Shown here piece after piece: positions 32,141-56,630 of a stretch of 64,000 nt of DNA. Made by a program: the position numbers and the translations under genes. Position 1 is the stretch's first letter; the number at the start of each line of letters is the position of its first letter. Source of the stretch: Oscillospiraceae bacterium (GTDB lineage Bacteria; Bacillota; Clostridia; Oscillospirales; Oscillospiraceae); assembly GCA_051867595.1 (NCBI GenBank), contig JBJDYS010000001.1, positions 18,784 through 82,783 of the forward strand, written 5' to 3'. The notes beneath the pieces are model-generated. The model worked only from the letters and a program-made list of their open reading frames with translations, had not been told where the DNA came from and did not search any database.

Positions 32141-32479
32141 TCTCAATTGGAAACATCGAAAGAGTCTTTCCAAAGCAGGATGCGACCGCCGCTTTTTCGG
32201 AAGCGGCCAAGGCCAGACGGACAGCCGGGTCGAATGCCGATTTCCCGCCCGCGTGCGGTGGCAGCTTCTGTTGCCTTATTGATTGAGTTAGAAGCTCAAG
32301 TTTTATAAGTTGGTATACTTTATAACCATGTGCCTGGGGCATACAAACTTGTGAAATGGTCAATAAGAGTAGTAAAAGTAATCTTTGCTATATAGACTCT
32401 AAAAACCAATGGGATTGTGAATACCGCCGATTGCCTGTGTTTGTGTGTATTATCTGCGGAACAATATCCGATCATACAA
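32141..32479 (+). ncRNA. Candidate structured leader or sRNA upstream of potA (unclassified)
   Basis: Non-coding stretch between the promoter and terminator. The GC-rich first half has local stems (ttggaaa/tttccaa; ccgcttt-ttcg-gaagcgg). The AT-rich second half has an extended -10 (TGgTATACT at 32311-32319). I recognise no known riboswitch signature. Confidence 0.3.
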
Positions 32480-32510
32480 GTGGAGTATGCCAAAGCATAC
32501 TCCACTTTTT
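32480..32510 (+). terminator. Intrinsic terminator 20 nt upstream of the potA start
   Basis: gtggagtatgc-caaa-gcatactccac (11-bp perfect stem) followed by ttttt. Confidence 0.7.
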
Positions 32511-32530
32511 ACATTTTCCGGAGAGACGCC

Positions 32531-33649
32531 ATGAAAAAGATCATTGAACTCAAAAACATCACCAAATCCTTTGACGGCGAGGTCGTCCTGAACAACATCA
32601 GCCTCGATATCTACGACAACGAGTTCATCACGCTGCTCGGCCCCTCCGGCTGCGGTAAAACCACCACCCTGCGTCTGATCGGCGGCTTTGAGACGCCGGA
32701 TTCCGGCGACATCATATTCATGGGCCAGCGCATAAACGACGTTCCCGCGCACAAGCGGAATGTGAACACCGTCTTTCAGCGGTACGCGCTCTTCCCCCAC
32801 CTGAACGTATTTGAGAACGTCGCGTTTCCCCTGCGCGAGAAAAAGGTGCCGAAGGACGAGATCGAGCAGCGCGTGGAGGAAATGCTCTCCATGGTCGCCC
32901 TCAAGGGCTTTGAAAAGCGCAACGTCACCCGTCTTTCCGGCGGCCAGCAGCAGCGCGTCGCCATCGCCCGTGCGCTCATCAGCCATCCGCAGGTGCTGCT
33001 CCTCGACGAGCCGCTCGCCGCGCTTGATCTCAAGCTGCGTAAGGATATGCAGCAGGAGCTGAAAAACATCCAGAAGGCCACCGGCATCACCTTCATCTTC
33101 GTCACCCACGATCAGGAGGAGGCGCTCTCCATGTCCGACACCATCGTCGTCATGTCCGAGGGCCGGATCCAGCAGATCGGCACGAGCGTCGATGTATACA
33201 ACGAGCCGGAAAACGCCTTCGTCGCGGACTTCATCGGCGAGTCGAACATCCTCGACGGCGTGATGGAAAAGGACTACACCGTCAGCTTCTCCGGCCAGAC
33301 CTTCCCCTGCCTCGACGCCGGCTTTGCCCCGAACGAGCCGGTCGATGTGGTCGTCCGCCCGGAGGACGTCGATATCGTCGCCCCGGAAAAGGGTATGCTG
33401 CAGGGCGTCGTCACCTCCGTCACCTTCATGGGCGTTCATTACGAGGTCATCGTGGACATCGGCGGCTTCAAGTGGATGATCCAGACCACCGACTTTGTGG
33501 ACGTGGACGAGAAGATCGGCCTGTATATCGAGCCGGACGCGATCCATGTTATGAAAAAGAGCGAATACTCCGGTATGTACGGCGATTATTCCTCCTTCTC
33601 GAACGAGCTCGACGAGCTCTCCGATGCGGAAGCCGAGGTTGACGAATGA
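32531..33649 (+). CDS. potA: Spermidine/putrescine ABC transporter ATP-binding protein
   Basis: Walker [10 protein letters not shown], signature [13 protein letters not shown], Walker [12 protein letters not shown], and a TOBE-like C-terminus. The start at 32531 follows GGAGAG. Confidence 0.95.
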
Positions 33650-51745: not shown

Positions 51746-51759
51746 AAAAACTTCTCCTG

Positions 51760-51789
51760 CGCCGCCGCGCTTTTGCGGCGGCGTTTTTT
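51760..51789 (+). terminator. Intrinsic terminator after the malic enzyme gene
   Basis: cgccgccgc-gctttt-gcggcggcg followed by tttttt. It ends 8 nt before the next ATG. Confidence 0.75.
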
Positions 51790-51796
51790 GAAACGT

Positions 51797-54331
51797 ATGA
51801 AAAGACTGACTGTCGGCATACTCGCACATGTGGACGCGGGCAAGACCACCCTCTCGGAGAGTATGCTGTATCTGACCGGGACAATCCGAAAGCTGGGACG
51901 CGTCGATCATCGCAATACGTTCCTTGACACGCATACCCTCGAACGCGAGCGCGGCATCACGATCTTCTCCAAGCAGGCGCGCCTCTCCACGGGCGACATG
52001 GAAATCACGCTTCTCGACACGCCCGGACACGCCGATTTCTCCGGCGAGACGGAGCGCACGCTCCCCGTCCTTGACTACGCGATCCTCGTCATCAGCGGCA
52101 CGGACGGCGTGCAGGCGCACACGGAAACGCTCTGGGCACTGCTCGAACGGTATCATGTCCCGACCTTTGTGTTCGTGACGAAAATGGACGCCTCCCATCA
52201 CACGCAGGCGGAGCTCATGGATGATCTGCAGGCGCACCTCAGCGACCGCTGTCTCGACCTCCGCGAACGGGATGACGAAACCCTCGCCATGCTCGACGAG
52301 GGTTTGCTGGATCGTTATATGGACACGGGAACCGTCACCGACGGCGATATTACCGCGCTGATCCAAAACCGACGGCTGTTCCCGGTCTGTTTCGGCTCCG
52401 GCCTCCGGCTCACGGGCGTCCCGGAATTTCTCGAGACGCTCGCGCGCTTCACCACAGAGCCTGCCTACCCCGAGGCCTTCGGCGCGCTGGTCTATAAAAT
52501 CGCCCGCGATCTGCAGGGGACGCGCCTGACCTATCTGAAGGTCACAGGCGGATCGCTCTCCGTGCGCGATACCATTCGCTGCCGCACCGCTGCCGGCGAG
52601 GAGATCGAAGAAAAAGCGGCGCAGCTTCGGCTCTATTCCGGCCAGAAATTTGAAACAGCCTCCACTGTCCCCGCCGGATGTATCTGCGCCGTCACGGGCC
52701 TGACCGGCACATGGCCCGGGCAGGGCCTCGGCGCGCAGGAGGACGCGCTTTCGCCCCTTCTCATCCCCGCGCTCAGCTACCGTCTGACCCTGCCGAAGGG
52801 CGTGGAGGCCCGGACGATGCTGCCGAAGCTGCGCGAGCTCGAGGAGGAAGAACCGCTTCTGCGCGTCGTGTGGCAGGAGCAGCTCAGCGAGATCCAGCTT
52901 CAGCTCATGGGCGCGGTGCAGATCGAGGTCGTCAAAAGCCTCATACGCGAGCGTTTCGATGTGGACGTGCAGATCGGCTCCGGGCGCATTCTCTACCGCG
53001 AGACGATCGCAGACACCGTCGAGGGCGTCGGACATTTTGAGCCGCTGCGCCATTATGCGGAGGTGCATCTGCTCATCGAGCCGGGCGAGCGCGGCAGCGG
53101 AATCCTATGCCGAAGCGCGCTGTCTGAGGATGTGCTCGACCTCAGCTGGCAGAGGCTCATCCTCACGCATCTCGAAGAAAAACAGCATCTCGGCGTTCTC
53201 ACCGGCGCTCCGCTGACCGATGTCGTCATTACGCTCATTGCCGGGCGGGCGCATCTCAAGCACACCGAGGGCGGCGATTTCCGGCAGGCAGCCTACCGCG
53301 CCGTGCGGCAGGGTCTCATGCAGGCGCAAAGCGTCCTTCTCGAGCCGTACTATGCGTTTCGGCTGGAGGTGCCGGCGGAGCATATCGGCCGCGCCATCAG
53401 CGACATTCACGCCATGGGCGGTGAGCACGGCTCCCCGGAGACGCTCGGTGACCGCATGGTCATTTCCGGCACCGCGCCGGTCTCTGCCATGGCGGAATAC
53501 GGCGCCGAGGTTGCCGCCTATACCCGCGGGCGCGGACGCTTTTCCGTCCGCGTGGAGGGCTACCGGCCCTGCCGCAACCAGGACGCCGTTGTCGCGGAGC
53601 TCGGCTATGACCCGGAAGCCGATACGGCGAACACGCCGGACAGCGTGTTCTGCGCCCATGGCGCGGGCTTCAACGTCAAATGGCGCGACGTGCCGGAGTA
53701 TATGCACCTCGACAGCGGCCTGAAACGCGCCGCCGACCCCGTCCCGGAGGTTCGCATTCGCCCCCACAGCCTCGACATCGACGAGCGTGAGCTGGAGGCC
53801 ATCATGGAGCGCGAATTTGGCCCCATTCGCCGCAAGGTCTATTCCGCACCGACGGTCAACAGCGCGATCGGCGTGGAGTATCAGGCCCGGAAAAAGCCCG
53901 AGCGCATCATCGTGGACGGATACAATGTGATCTTTGCATGGGATGAGCTCAAAGCGCTCGCCGAAAAGAACATCGACTCCGCCCGCGCACGGCTCATCGA
54001 CCTCCTCGCAAGCTACCGCGGCTATACAAAGTCCGAGCTTGTGCTGGTGTTTGACGCCTACCGCGTCCCCGCCGGGCAAGGCTCGAAATACGACGACGCA
54101 AAGCTCCATATCGCCTACACCAAGGAGGGCGAGACGGCCGATATGTATATCGAGCGGCTCGTCGCCGACATCGGCAAAAACGAGTCCGTCCGCGTCATCA
54201 CCTCCGACCGTCTCATCCGGCTGTCGGCCATGCGTACGGGCGTCCGCCTCACCTCGTCCAAAGAGTTTGAGGCCGAGGTCGCCTGGGTGATGGAGCAGAT
54301 CGACGCGATCGTGAAGAAATCGCAGGAATGA
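51797..54331 (+). CDS. Fusion protein: TetM/EF-G-like translational GTPase plus a C-terminal YacP/Rae1-type NYN nuclease domain
   Basis: One uninterrupted frame. G1 AHVDAGKT, G2 RGITI, G3 DTPGH, G4 variant TKMD (52178-52189). EF-G-like domains II-V follow over about 630 aa, then the NYN domain. Confidence 0.85.
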   Translation: MKRLTVGILAHVDAGKTTLSESMLYLTGTIRKLGRVDHRNTFLDTHTLERERGITIFSKQARLSTGDMEITLLDTPGHADFSGETERTLPVLDYAILVISGTDGVQAHTETLWALLERYHVPTFVFVTKMDASHHTQAELMDDLQAHLSDRCLDLRERDDETLAMLDEGLLDRYMDTGTVTDGDITALIQNRRLFPVCFGSGLRLTGVPEFLETLARFTTEPAYPEAFGALVYKIARDLQGTRLTYLKVTGGSLSVRDTIRCRTAAGEEIEEKAAQLRLYSGQKFETASTVPAGCICAVTGLTGTWPGQGLGAQEDALSPLLIPALSYRLTLPKGVEARTMLPKLRELEEEEPLLRVVWQEQLSEIQLQLMGAVQIEVVKSLIRERFDVDVQIGSGRILYRETIADTVEGVGHFEPLRHYAEVHLLIEPGERGSGILCRSALSEDVLDLSWQRLILTHLEEKQHLGVLTGAPLTDVVITLIAGRAHLKHTEGGDFRQAAYRAVRQGLMQAQSVLLEPYYAFRLEVPAEHIGRAISDIHAMGGEHGSPETLGDRMVISGTAPVSAMAEYGAEVAAYTRGRGRFSVRVEGYRPCRNQDAVVAELGYDPEADTANTPDSVFCAHGAGFNVKWRDVPEYMHLDSGLKRAADPVPEVRIRPHSLDIDERELEAIMEREFGPIRRKVYSAPTVNSAIGVEYQARKKPERIIVDGYNVIFAWDELKALAEKNIDSARARLIDLLASYRGYTKSELVLVFDAYRVPAGQGSKYDDAKLHIAYTKEGETADMYIERLVADIGKNESVRVITSDRLIRLSAMRTGVRLTSSKEFEAEVAWVMEQIDAIVKKSQE
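53897..54328 (+). other. NYN (YacP/Rae1-like) domain portion of the fusion ORF
   Basis: PERIIVDGYNVIFAW..., LVLVFDAY, GETADMYIE and RVITSDRL reproduce the acidic motifs of YacP-type PIN/NYN nucleases as I remember them. Confidence 0.7.
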
Positions 54332-54335
54332 CAGC

Positions 54336-55091
54336 ATGAACCATGAAAGCAATTCTTTTATCCGGCGCATCGGGGATCTTGCCGACCGCTGCGAGCGGCA
54401 GGGCGTCGTCACCGCGACCGGCTTTCTGACCCCGGCGGAGCAGTACGAGCTGCGCTCATGGGCCGCGTCGCACCCGGAGGTGAGCCTTCTTCTCTCCGGC
54501 GGACAGGACGGCTGCGAGAGGCAGTGCGCGTTCTTTCTCCCCTTTTGGATGGAACCGGATGAGCTTGACCTGTCCGAATACATCCACGCGGTACGCATGG
54601 AGGCCCATTTCGGCAGACCCGGACACCGGGACTACCTGGGCGCGGCGCTCGGCCTCGGCATTCAGCGGGAGTGGCTCGGCGATTTACGCATCCGCGACAC
54701 GACGGCGTATGTGTTCTGCCTGCCGTCCGTGGAGCCGCTTCTCCTCGACGAGCTGACAAAGGCGGGCCGCGTCGGCATCAAGATCGCCTCCTGCCCGCTG
54801 TCCGACGTTCCTCCGCCGGAGCGCACAGTAAAGCGGGTGAGCTTCACGGTCAAAAGTCCCCGGCTCGACGCCGTGGCCGGTTCGATGTTCGGCCTTTCCC
54901 GCACGGCGGCCGCCGAGCTTATCCGCATGGGTGCGGTAAGCCTGAACTATTCGGTCTGCGACAAGATCGACGCACCCGTCAAGGAGGGCGACGTCATCTC
55001 CATGCGCGGCCACGGCAAGGGCGTCCTCACCGATTTCGGCGGACGCTCACGCAAAGACCGCCTCTTTCTGGAAGCGGAAATATACCTCTGA
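54336..55091 (+). CDS. ylmH: YlmH-like RNA-binding protein with a C-terminal S4 domain
   Basis: 251 aa with N-terminal FLTPAEQ and HRDYLGAALGLGI motifs, and an S4 domain (RLDAVAGSMFGLSRTAAAELIRMGAVSLN). Starts 4 nt after the fusion ORF. Confidence 0.8.
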   Translation: MNHESNSFIRRIGDLADRCERQGVVTATGFLTPAEQYELRSWAASHPEVSLLLSGGQDGCERQCAFFLPFWMEPDELDLSEYIHAVRMEAHFGRPGHRDYLGAALGLGIQREWLGDLRIRDTTAYVFCLPSVEPLLLDELTKAGRVGIKIASCPLSDVPPPERTVKRVSFTVKSPRLDAVAGSMFGLSRTAAAELIRMGAVSLNYSVCDKIDAPVKEGDVISMRGHGKGVLTDFGGRSRKDRLFLEAEIYL

Positions 55092-55100
55092 CATACGAAA

Positions 55101-55126
55101 ACGCCCGATGTGTCGGGCGTTTTTTT
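55101..55126 (+). terminator. Intrinsic terminator
   Basis: acgcccga-tgtg-tcgggcgt followed by tttttt. Confidence 0.8.
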
Positions 55127-55204
55127 GCTTTCATTTCAGCCGACATGACCAAAAGTCATGTTCTGCAATCCGTCCGCAAAGCGCCACAAAATGTTTGTAC
55201 GGAT

Positions 55205-55233
55205 GCATCATTTTTCCAAAAGCGCACAAACTA
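55205..55233 (+). promoter_or_regulatory. Candidate forespore (sigma-G/F-type) promoter for spoVA genes
   Basis: GCATC-17 nt-CAAACTA, compared with my remembered sigma-G consensus GnATR-N17/18-CAtnnTA. Confidence 0.3.
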
Positions 55234-55253
55234 CCGCCATGGAAACAAAACGA

Positions 55254-56258
55254 ATGGGAAAACAGACCGTCTTTCTGACGAAACAGCCGTCTGTTCTGGC
55301 GGCCGCCTGCGCCGGCGGCCGAAAAGAGAGCCAAGGCCCTCTGCGTAAGTATTTCGACCATCTGAGCCAGGATTCGCGCTTCGGGTCAAAAAGCTGGGAA
55401 AAGGCGGAGAGCGCCATGCTCCGACAGTGCTTTGCCACCGCCTGCGACAAGGCAAAAATCAAACCGGAGGACATCGAATATGTCTTTTCCGGCGACCTAT
55501 TGAACCAGTGCGCCGGGTCGGCCTACGCCATGCGGGACTGCGGCGCGCCGTATTTCGGGCTCTACGGCGCCTGCTCGACGATGGCGGAAAGCCTCTCTCT
55601 TGCCGCGATGATGATCGACGGGGGATTCTGTCAAACGGCTGCCGCCGCCACAAGCTCACATTTCTGCTCCGCAGAACGGCAGTACCGCTTCCCGCTGCAA
55701 TACGGCAGTCAGCGTCCGCCCTCCGCGCAGCGAACCGTCACGGGTGCGGGCGCGATCATCCTCGGCAACGACGGCCCCGGGCCGTATATCACCTGCATCA
55801 CCACGGGCATTATCGTCGATGCGGGCATCACGGACATGAACAATATGGGCGCGGCGATGGCGCCTGCCGCTTTTGAGACCCTCTCCGCGCATTTCCGCGA
55901 CACGGGACGCACGCCCGACTACTACGACGCCATCGTCACGGGCGACCTCGGCGTGGTCGGCTCGGACATCCTGCGCGAGCTTTTCGCCATGGACAAGATC
56001 GACCTCGGGGTACAGTATATGGACTGCGGACGGCTCATCTATTATATCGAAAAACAGGATGCTCACAGCGGCGGCTCCGGCTGCGGATGCTCGGCCTCCG
56101 TCCTGTGCGGACATCTGCTCCACGGCATGGCGGCCGGGCAATGGAACAAGCTCCTCTTCGCCGCCACCGGCGCCATGATGAGCCCCACCACCAACCAGCA
56201 GGGCGAGAGCATTCCTTCCATCTGCCACGCGGTGGCCATCGAAAATCAAAGGGTGTGA
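55254..56258 (+). CDS. spoVAD: Stage V sporulation protein AD
   Basis: Thiolase-like fold. MGKQTVFLTKQPSVLAAACAGGRKESQGPL aligns with the B. subtilis SpoVAD N-terminus as remembered. An alternative ATG at 55239 lies too close to the putative -10. Confidence 0.85.
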   Translation: MGKQTVFLTKQPSVLAAACAGGRKESQGPLRKYFDHLSQDSRFGSKSWEKAESAMLRQCFATACDKAKIKPEDIEYVFSGDLLNQCAGSAYAMRDCGAPYFGLYGACSTMAESLSLAAMMIDGGFCQTAAAATSSHFCSAERQYRFPLQYGSQRPPSAQRTVTGAGAIILGNDGPGPYITCITTGIIVDAGITDMNNMGAAMAPAAFETLSAHFRDTGRTPDYYDAIVTGDLGVVGSDILRELFAMDKIDLGVQYMDCGRLIYYIEKQDAHSGGSGCGCSASVLCGHLLHGMAAGQWNKLLFAATGAMMSPTTNQQGESIPSICHAVAIENQRV

Positions 56259-56261
56259 CCT

Positions 56262-56630
56262 ATGGAAACGGTATCCATGTTTCTGCGCGCATTTCTCGTC
56301 GGCGGCGCGTTCTGCCTCATCGGACAGCTTCTCATCGACCTGACGAAGCTGACGCCTGCCCGTATTCTCACGATGTACGTCGTCGCGGGCGTTATCCTGA
56401 GCGCCGTCGGCGTGTATGAGCCGCTCGTCGAATGGGCCGGCTCCGGCGCGAGCGTGCCGCTGACGGGCTTCGGCCATCTTCTCGCGAAGGGCGTCAAGGA
56501 CGCCATCGCCGAAAAGGGCTGCCTCGGCATCTTTACCGGCGGCTTCACCTCCGCCGCAGGCGGGATATGCGCCGCGATCGTCTTCGGCCTCATCATCGCA
56601 CTGCTGTTCAAAAGCAAGGAAAAATACTGA
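56262..56630 (+). CDS. spoVAE: Stage V sporulation protein AE (SpoVAC/SpoVAEB family membrane protein)
   Basis: FLRAFLVGGAFCLIGQLLIDLTKLTPARIL...VPLTGFGHLLAKGV, typical of SpoVAEb. Confidence 0.85.
   Translation: METVSMFLRAFLVGGAFCLIGQLLIDLTKLTPARILTMYVVAGVILSAVGVYEPLVEWAGSGASVPLTGFGHLLAKGVKDAIAEKGCLGIFTGGFTSAAGGICAAIVFGLIIALLFKSKEKY

Follow-up and report, generated by a model that had tools for sequence, protein, structure and literature searches.

A TetM/EF-G-like translational GTPase joined to a Rae1-type NYN nuclease in gut and rumen Clostridia, a candidate factor for stalled ribosomes

The stretch of DNA analysed here, 64,000 nucleotides (nt) of contig JBJDYS010000001.1 from an Oscillospiraceae bacterium (hereafter the window), encodes at positions 51797-54331 of the forward strand a protein that, judging from its sequence, is two enzymes on one chain with both active sites kept: a translational GTPase of the TetM/EF-G kind and an endoribonuclease of the Rae1/YacP kind. 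We regard it as an even call whether this fusion is an endonuclease that cuts mRNA in the manner of Rae1, is docked by its GTPase on stalled or collided ribosomes and feeds rescue by transfer-messenger RNA (tmRNA) or by RqcH and YlmH. The family is a functionally uncharacterised combination of known kinds, a Rae1-type nuclease and a Tet/EF-G-like GTPase. Its architecture has been recorded in the bioinformatic survey of Atkinson 2015 (PMC4342817), where antibiotic protection with an added RNase was suggested, and again by Matelska et al. 2017 (PMC5499597). Our search of the literature found no experimental study of the fusion and no paper tying it to YlmH or to ribosome-associated quality control (RQC). 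The initial annotation, made from the letters alone, had known of no experimental description of such a protein; this agrees with our search, but the architecture itself was already on record.

One reading frame for two enzymes

The open reading frame (ORF) runs unbroken over 844 codons plus the stop. Reading the frame and scanning it with Pfam confirmed the earlier observation that it joins two domains, with GTP_EFTU, the EF-G domains and NYN_YacP in the fusion and S4 in the protein encoded downstream. The translation is 100% identical to a GenBank protein from a metagenome-assembled genome (MAG), P0001, named 'NYN domain-containing protein [Oscillospiraceae bacterium]'. The GC content at third codon positions (GC3) of the gene is that of the neighbouring genes, that is, its composition is native. 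The parts of the chain, in amino acids (aa) of the fusion, are the following.

51797..54331, + strand: fusion ORF, a TetM/EF-G-like translational GTPase carrying at its C-terminus a tethered NYN endoribonuclease of the Rae1/YacP type (Pfam, NCBIfam and PDB matches)
51797..52456, + strand: G domain, aa 1-220 (Pfam GTP_EFTU, G1-G4 motifs)
52478..53581, + strand: EF-G-like domains II, III, IV and V, aa 228-595 (Pfam, AlphaFold2, Foldseek)
53582..53716, + strand: conserved C-terminal mini-module, aa 596-640 (conservation, AlphaFold2)
53717..53902, + strand: flexible charged tether, aa 641-702 (AlphaFold2 confidence, conservation)
53903..54328, + strand: NYN_YacP nuclease domain, aa 703-844 (Pfam, PDB 5mq8/5mq9)

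Pfam placed GTP_EFTU at aa 3-218 (E = 1.5e-48), EF-G_D2 at 228-305, EFG_III at 334-394, EFG_IV at 396-511 and EFG_C at 513-595, followed by NYN_YacP (PF05991) at 704-843 (E = 5.1e-39; 134.4 bits against a cut-off of 24.6). The AlphaFold2 model of the whole fusion has a mean predicted local distance difference test score (pLDDT) of 90.2 and a predicted TM-score of 0.72, and its best Foldseek matches are EF-G, EF-G2 and EF2 (E of about 1e-51), all of the EF-G type. The EF-G/TetM-like part had been estimated at about 630 aa; the GTPase is indeed complete, but the EF-G/Tet-like body ends near aa 595, and what lies beyond is the mini-module and the linker.

Both catalytic centres are conserved

Conservation was profiled over 90 aligned family members that are 39-76% identical to the window protein. 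In the G domain we read G1 AHVDAGKT, G2 RGITI, G3 DTPGH and G4 TKMD. The residues D13, G15, K16 and T17 of G1, T55 of G2, D74, P76 and G77 of G3, and K129 and D131 of G4 are invariant, and the catalytic His78 that follows in DTPGH is conserved in at least 90% of the sequences. Having G1-G4, the catalytic His, domain II and EF-G domains III-V, the protein belongs to the EF-G/EF2 branch of the translational GTPase superfamily, and aa 1-640 are by their sequence a five-domain EF-G/TetM-type translational GTPase with intact GTP-binding and hydrolysis motifs. The G4 motif (about window positions 52175-52186) had been called unusual. TKMD is present, but it occurs in 117 of 118 close homologues, while the wider family has mostly the canonical NKMD; by this comparison it is a trait of the window's clade and not decay, with K and D retained. 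TKxD is also used by GTPases of the signal recognition particle type.

The nuclease domain aligns to residues 4-141 of B. subtilis Rae1 with 35% identity (PDB 5mq8/5mq9, E = 1.6e-18). All the YacP-type acidic motifs noted at first, IVDGYN, VFDAY, ETADMYIE and ITSDR, are present, and the alignment shows the catalytic Asp residues: D707 and D782 correspond to D7 and D81 of Rae1, where the double mutant D7N D81N is catalytically dead (PMC10351889), and D753 and D804, counted on the alignment, fall on D53 and D104. D707, Y709, N710, D753, Y755, T775, D782 and D804 are invariant in the 90 sequences. Since both catalytic centres are conserved down to 39% identity, both enzymes are under purifying selection.

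The domain thus keeps the NYN_YacP fold and all four acidic motifs of Rae1, and like Rae1 it may work on the ribosome. The two differ in setting. Rae1 is a free protein of about 170 aa, whereas the fusion domain forms the C-terminal end of a chain of 844 aa, preceded by a complete GTPase and a tether of at least 60 aa, and its recruitment would be mediated by that GTPase. The typical YacP is a single-domain protein of an mrnC-yacO-yacP operon; here the neighbours are a malic enzyme and ylmH instead. The 64-kb window holds no second NYN, YlmH or translational GTPase gene.

Resemblance to Tet proteins and EF-G

The NCBIfam model tet_protect (NF012153) matches the fusion with E = 2.2e-120 at 402.8 bits against a cut-off of 775, the TetM/W/O/S-specific model reaches 256.9 bits against 1100, and the EF-G model TIGR00484 263.9 bits against 659.4; EF-G models score nearly as well as tet_protect. 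The best full-length sequence match is TetO, over aa 1-592 (E = 4.1e-70). With TetM and TetO (PDB 3j9y, 4v6v) the fusion shares the same five-domain layout and a short G' region, and it would probably share their docking site on the ribosome. It differs from them in a longer and different C-terminal module, in carrying a nuclease and in its chromosomal setting, where no mobile-element genes lie among the 10 flanking genes; Tet ribosomal protection genes are usually found on mobile elements. Some databases label relatives as 'TetM/TetW/TetO/TetS family' (P0276).

With EF-G and EF-G2 (PDB 1dar, 4v9h, 1wdt, 8dmf) the fusion has in common the fold, the catalytic His of G3 and H486, the counterpart of H573 of T. 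thermophilus EF-G. It differs by the lack of the full G' insert, at which the EF-G alignment breaks and the fusion is about 57 aa shorter, in the manner of Tet proteins, and by the extra C-terminal module, tether and nuclease. EF-G proper was rejected as an identity on the TIGR00484 score below cut-off, the short G' and an altered loop I.

The tip loops of domain IV, GVGHFEPLRHYAEVH (aa 411-425) and GRAHLKHTEGGDFR (aa 483-496), are specific to the family and near-invariant in it. GVGHFEPLRHYAEVH is the counterpart of EF-G loop I and is four residues shorter ('GHFEP----LRHY' in the fusion and 'FIRQTGGRGQY' in EF-G). GRAHLKHTEGGDFR, whose motif recurs across the family (168 matches), keeps the His that aligns with H573, and it is the segment to which the TetO loop GLYYSPVSTPADFR aligns. 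It takes the place of the TetO loop YYSPVSTPADFR, for which the fusion family has the invariant AHLKHTEGGDFR; where the Tet proteins have YSPVS the fusion has HLKHTEGG. The TetM cryo-EM literature assigns the displacement of tetracycline to the YSPVS of domain-IV loop III.

Domains II-V are modelled with pLDDT above 90, and so is the mini-module that follows (about 92-94), a helix, a beta-hairpin and a helix. Its 45 aa carry the motif GYDPEAD..N..DSVFC.HGAGF.V.W..VPEYMH, with S616, F618 and G622 invariant. No sequence homologue of aa 596-703 was found in the PDB, where the top match, HEXIM1 at E = 1.1, is noise; that '...VPEYMH' resembles the C-terminal helix of TetM is no more than a possibility. 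The tether is predicted to be disordered (pLDDT below 50) at aa 647-662 and 676-698, with a helix at 663-674; ELEAIMEREFGPIRR (aa 665-679) is its one short conserved helix. It is about 62 aa long in the window protein, 61-75 aa in the clade and 59-151 aa across the family, and is always present.

Spread and authenticity of the family

Over 120 clusters formed at 90% identity share the architecture, with 63-100% identity to the query. At least 418 relatives came from a scan that took one genome per species; the best 80 of them, to which our species-level locus counts refer, were reported full-length and fused, and come from Oscillospiraceae, Ruminococcaceae, Christensenellales and other Clostridia of the gut and rumen. 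Lachnospiraceae are also among the hosts. The possibility of an assembly or frameshift artefact, raised at the outset, is ruled out, since hundreds of assemblies, independent of one another, carry the fused frame.

Searched with the linker and NYN region (aa 590-844), a set of 1.84 billion representatives yielded about 293 clusters at 50% identity (E of 1e-30 or below). Among the best 150 of these, 78 are proteins of 815-1200 aa matched at their C-terminus and the remainder are mostly fragments. The sole close match that looked like a short stand-alone Rae1, P0262 (171 aa), was rejected: it lacks VDGYN and its first ~40 residues depart from the family linker, so we read it as a chimeric or misassembled gene call. 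Through P0261, a more distant member with 39% overall identity, we reached a 'Eubacterium sp.' protein of 862 aa that is indexed in 467 blocks of the collection, one of them a 3.4-Mb contig.

At least 120 metagenome stretches encode the domain-IV signature of the family, KHTEGGDFR, and our counts refer to the 120 listed. The fused form prevails among them: NYN lies in the same ORF as the signature in 94, and in the next frame or gene in about five or six. Isolated split cases (L009, L104, L113, L170, L181) look like frameshifts or rare splits. In the species representative L009 (6001-8550) the gene is divided into ORFs of 512 and 333 aa in different frames, a frameshift that marks an assembly error or a pseudogene. 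Taken by its sequences, the family appears to be a housekeeping factor of Clostridia in gut and rumen that is encoded on the chromosome and inherited vertically.

The ylmH neighbour and the genomic context

54336..55091, + strand: ylmH homologue of 251 aa with N-terminal, RRM-like and S4 domains (Pfam, PDB 8s1p_V)

A gap of 4 nt separates this gene from the fusion stop, and an AGGA lies within the last part of the fusion ORF; the two genes are probably co-transcribed and translationally coupled. Its product matches YlmH_RBD (36.6 bits, cut-off 23) and S4 (26.2 bits, cut-off 22.8) of Pfam, and aligns to residues 28-249 of B. subtilis YlmH (8s1p_V), over all three domains, with E = 3.9e-32.

Neighbours were sought by tblastn because longest-ORF calling picked antisense ORFs in loci of high-GC genomes. 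In the window's clade, 64 of 77 informative loci (from the best 80) have ylmH downstream of the fusion and on its strand, directly adjacent in 49 and, in 15, beyond 0.1-2 kb of unrelated inserted DNA. Only the two closest loci retain the malic-enzyme gene upstream, so the ylmH link outlasts general synteny. The inserts are diverse. Five rabbit-gut Oscillospiraceae loci (L005, L007, L014, L019, L053) have a gene of about 285 aa between fusion and ylmH, whose product carries WHELGHV, an HExxH-like motif of a putative metallopeptidase; L012 and L028 have a small membrane or lipoprotein gene at that place, and L015 and L022 a gene of about 240 aa. In one metagenome stretch (L151) the two genes are divergent, with ylmH on the opposite strand and 52 nt upstream of the fusion.

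YlmH can stand in for RqcP in RqcH-dependent alanine tailing on 50S-peptidyl-tRNA complexes (PMC11317155). The ylmH gene of B. subtilis sits in the ylm/dcw region, whereas that of the window is in a terminator-bounded operon with a GTPase-nuclease, a neighbour of which the same paper makes no mention (PMC11317155). We found no paper that reports a linkage of ylmH to the fusion.

Other clades have other neighbours. In the 'Eubacterium sp.' clade (L081-L083, 8001-11365) a gene for an RlmB-like 23S rRNA 2'-O-methyltransferase overlaps the fusion stop by 4 nt, which recalls the yacO-yacP adjacency of B. subtilis in reversed order (PMC5499597), and rho-rpmE-DUF1385-prmC-prfA lie upstream of the fusion. 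In a Firmicutes MAG (L085, 6001-10199) a gene for an ABC-F 'ribosomal protection-like' ATPase, another A/E-site ribosome factor (NF000355, 382.8 bits against a cut-off of 380), begins 42 nt after the fusion. Two further clades that were checked had nothing relevant beside it.

In the window the flanks hold glmS, purB, purA, nadE, fumarase, malic enzyme and spoVAD/spoVAE, and there are no mobile-element genes among the 10 flanking genes (~13 kb). The sporulation genes spoVAD and spoVAEB-like (55158-56630, + strand) stand directly past the operon's terminator, and spoVAD is near ylmH in many related loci; given these genes, the host is probably a spore-forming member of the Oscillospiraceae.

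Terminators and expression signals

51759..51789, + strand: intrinsic terminator of the upstream malic-enzyme gene (terminator scan, RNA fold)
55097..55131, + strand: intrinsic terminator closing the two-gene unit (terminator scan, sequence reading)

Both terminators that had been proposed to bracket the gene pair were found by the scan. In the upstream hairpin (51759-51784) a GC-rich 10-11-bp stem closes a loop of 4 nt and six T follow, and it folds with -31.6 kcal/mol (z = -3.86); the downstream one (55097-55124) has a 12-bp stem, a 4-nt loop and a T-run. The fusion ATG stands 7 nt past the upstream T-run, not 8 as first counted, and it lacks a Shine-Dalgarno (SD)-like sequence, as had been seen. 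This spacing leaves no room for a promoter, and the promoter scan found no sigma-70-like site between terminator and ATG; nor did the Rfam scan find a leader or riboswitch upstream of the fusion.

In 25 of 79 related loci, L001, L002, L006 and L008 included, the 80 nt before the fusion ATG contain a terminator-like hairpin; L012, L013, L016, L028, L037 and others have it as well. With a hairpin so placed, expression would depend on terminator read-through and its level would be low. An SD precedes the fusion in 54 of the 79 loci. It is present in L001 and L002 (GAGG), and the window copy is unusual in having none. Ten of the 79 loci (L042, L044, L049, L050, L055-L059, L078) have no SD and show a TTGAT(T/A) -35-like box with an extended -10 box (TGnTAnAAT-like) and 6-8 nt between its end and the ATG; the fusion mRNAs of these loci look leaderless.

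Elsewhere in the window, the SpF59 small RNA/ldcC RNA motif (RF02440, 67.1 bits) lies at 32183-32240 (+ strand), upstream of the ORF 32417-33649, and is the sole Rfam match above the gathering score.

Proposed function and alternative explanations

Stand-alone Rae1 is, by experiment, a translation-dependent mRNA endonuclease at stalled or collided ribosomes (PMC12407103, PMC13622287). It is found in more than 87% of Firmicutes, and its cuts at collided ribosomes yield tmRNA substrates and so feed trans-translation (PMC13622287). The initial annotation had assumed that Rae1 acts at the A site. That premise is outdated, as the cut is made at the tail of the stalled ribosome, 12 nt upstream from its A-site codon (PMC12407103). 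The wider proposal built on it, that the GTPase brings the nuclease to stalled ribosomes, has fared better: it is the best-supported reading. In this scheme the GTPase in its GTP form would dock, like TetM and EF-G, at the factor-binding site of a ribosome that has stalled or collided and whose A site is accessible, and docking would concentrate the tethered nuclease locally. Because the A site would be occupied by domain IV of the GTPase, the nuclease must cut elsewhere on the mRNA path; it might do so at the edge of the ribosome, in the entry channel or at the disome interface, where free Rae1 cuts. Hydrolysis of GTP would free the factor, and it may assist in loosening or splitting the ribosome as well. 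The truncated mRNA would turn upstream ribosomes into non-stop complexes for tmRNA, and in the window's clade a co-expressed YlmH suggests that 50S-peptidyl-tRNA products may be passed on to alanine tailing by RqcH and YlmH, a handover that we infer from gene linkage.

The joining of a ribosome-recognition or NTPase module to an endonuclease on one chain is known from SmrB of E. coli, MutS2/RqcU of B. subtilis and Cue2/NONU-1 of eukaryotes (PMC13622287). The fusion may follow the same logic and likewise feed tmRNA or RQC. The folds of SmrB and MutS2 are unrelated to it (an SMR nuclease with a MutS ATPase, against an NYN nuclease with a translational GTPase), and the collision sensors bind at the disome interface, whereas for the fusion the factor-binding site is presumed. 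The ribosome-related neighbours in several clades (ylmH, RlmB-like, ABC-F) count in favour of a function of this kind.

Other observations weigh against it. For the fusion itself we infer ribosome binding, RNA substrate and cleavage position alike from the sequence, and since tens of angstroms separate the factor-binding site from either end of the mRNA channel, the architecture does not fix the site of cleavage. At its C-terminal end the NYN domain stops ~24 positions short of the YacP model (it covers profile positions 1-142 of 166). The module of fusion and coupled ylmH, as first proposed, holds in the window's clade; even there ylmH is missing in 13 of the 77 loci, all more distant (56-62% identical), and it adjoins the fusion in only 2 of the 120 metagenome stretches, so that YlmH coupling is a property of the clade and not of the family. 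ORF clustering around these 120 loci found no family-wide conserved neighbour. Finally, the family includes at least four natural unfused GTPases of about 640-790 aa (L103, L149, L205, L132). They keep KHTEGGDFR and the mini-module and end a few residues past '...Y.H'. No NYN gene lies within more than 4 kb downstream of L103 and L149, and none follows L205 and L132, where the flank is only 780 and 386 nt and absence is less certain. Their existence implies that the GTPase core has a role of its own, which need not involve RNA cleavage and could be stall sensing or subunit splitting.

A stronger version of the docked-endonuclease scheme, which we think unlikely, is a self-contained 'cut-and-split' machine: the GTPase would recognise the stalled or collided ribosome, and through GTP hydrolysis it would both position the nuclease at the disome interface and dissociate the ribosome, so as to deliver 50S-peptidyl-tRNA to YlmH and RqcH. 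If true, the fusion would be the counterpart in function, built on a GTPase, of MutS2/SmrB or of Hbs1-Dom34 with Cue2 in eukaryotes, and a natural protein that shows where Rae1-type nucleases work on the ribosome.

The fusion might instead be a factor of ribosome biogenesis or turnover, whose GTPase 'test-drives' immature, damaged or hibernating ribosomes while the NYN domain trims or cleaves rRNA and not mRNA. There are eukaryotic parallels in the PIN nuclease Nob1, stimulated by the GTPase eIF5B, and in EFL1 on the 60S subunit; YacP was first predicted to act in rRNA or tRNA maturation, from its operon with Mini-III and YacO/RlmB (PMC5499597), an association echoed by the methyltransferase gene that overlaps the fusion in the 'Eubacterium sp.' clade, and the YlmH paper leaves a role of YlmH in ribosome biogenesis open (PMC11317155). 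However, translation-dependent mRNA cleavage is the sole activity shown by experiment for the YacP family (PMC12407103, PMC10351889, PMC13622287), the RlmB-like neighbour belongs to one clade only and there are no rRNA-processing genes near the window gene, and we hold this role to be doubtful. It is decidedly unlikely, in our view, that the fusion is a gene-specific post-transcriptional regulator which cuts a few mRNAs at programmed stalls, as B. subtilis Rae1 does on spyA, bmrX and fliY; and we would say the same of its corollary, that the GTPase does no more than raise affinity for the ribosome and that nothing mechanistic lies behind the proximity of ylmH. Known targets of Rae1 are indeed a few short ORFs with peptide- and stop-codon-dependent stalling (PMC12407103), and the ylmH linkage is limited to one clade, but recent data make the role of Rae1 global and collision-dependent (PMC13622287), and that linkage outlasts synteny and survives a change of orientation.

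A ribosome-protection protein with an added RNase, dislodging tetracycline-like or other A-site drugs, would account for the fact that the best NCBIfam and PDB matches are Tet proteins (tet_protect and TetO), for the TetM-family names of some relatives (P0276) and for the ABC-F neighbour in one clade. A tetracycline protection protein was nevertheless rejected as an identity, and the drug-protection role is highly improbable: the tet_protect score is about half the cut-off and nearly equalled by EF-G models, the drug-displacing YSPVS loop is replaced by a different invariant motif, the composition is native, the chromosomal context is one of housekeeping genes with no mobile-element genes nearby, and the family is broad and apparently vertical in Clostridia. 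NYN and PIN nucleases are common toxins, and the strong terminator 7 nt upstream together with the missing SD suggests very low expression of the window gene, as might suit a toxin or anti-phage effector that upon infection or stress shuts down translation by cutting mRNA or rRNA on ribosomes and is kept low by a tight terminator and a weak start. We consider this extremely improbable, since the gene is single-copy and stable in chromosomal position across many species, most relatives do have an SD, and the window flanks contain no antitoxin-like partner and no defence-island or mobile context. A known defence system was rejected as well, PADLOC giving no match to the fusion or to the YlmH protein.

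Significance

The mechanism of Rae1 was revised in 2025-2026, and a widespread fusion of a Rae1-type nuclease with a factor-site GTPase makes it directly testable how Rae1 is recruited to stalled or collided ribosomes and where it sits on them; separable point mutants are possible in it, at K16/H78 for the GTPase and at D707/D782 for the nuclease. The family is abundant in Clostridia of the human, ruminant and rabbit gut, and as its members are sometimes annotated as TetM-family resistance proteins, a housekeeping role would matter for resistome surveys. The operon with ylmH, confined to one clade, suggests that nucleolytic rescue and RQC rescue may be connected in bacteria.

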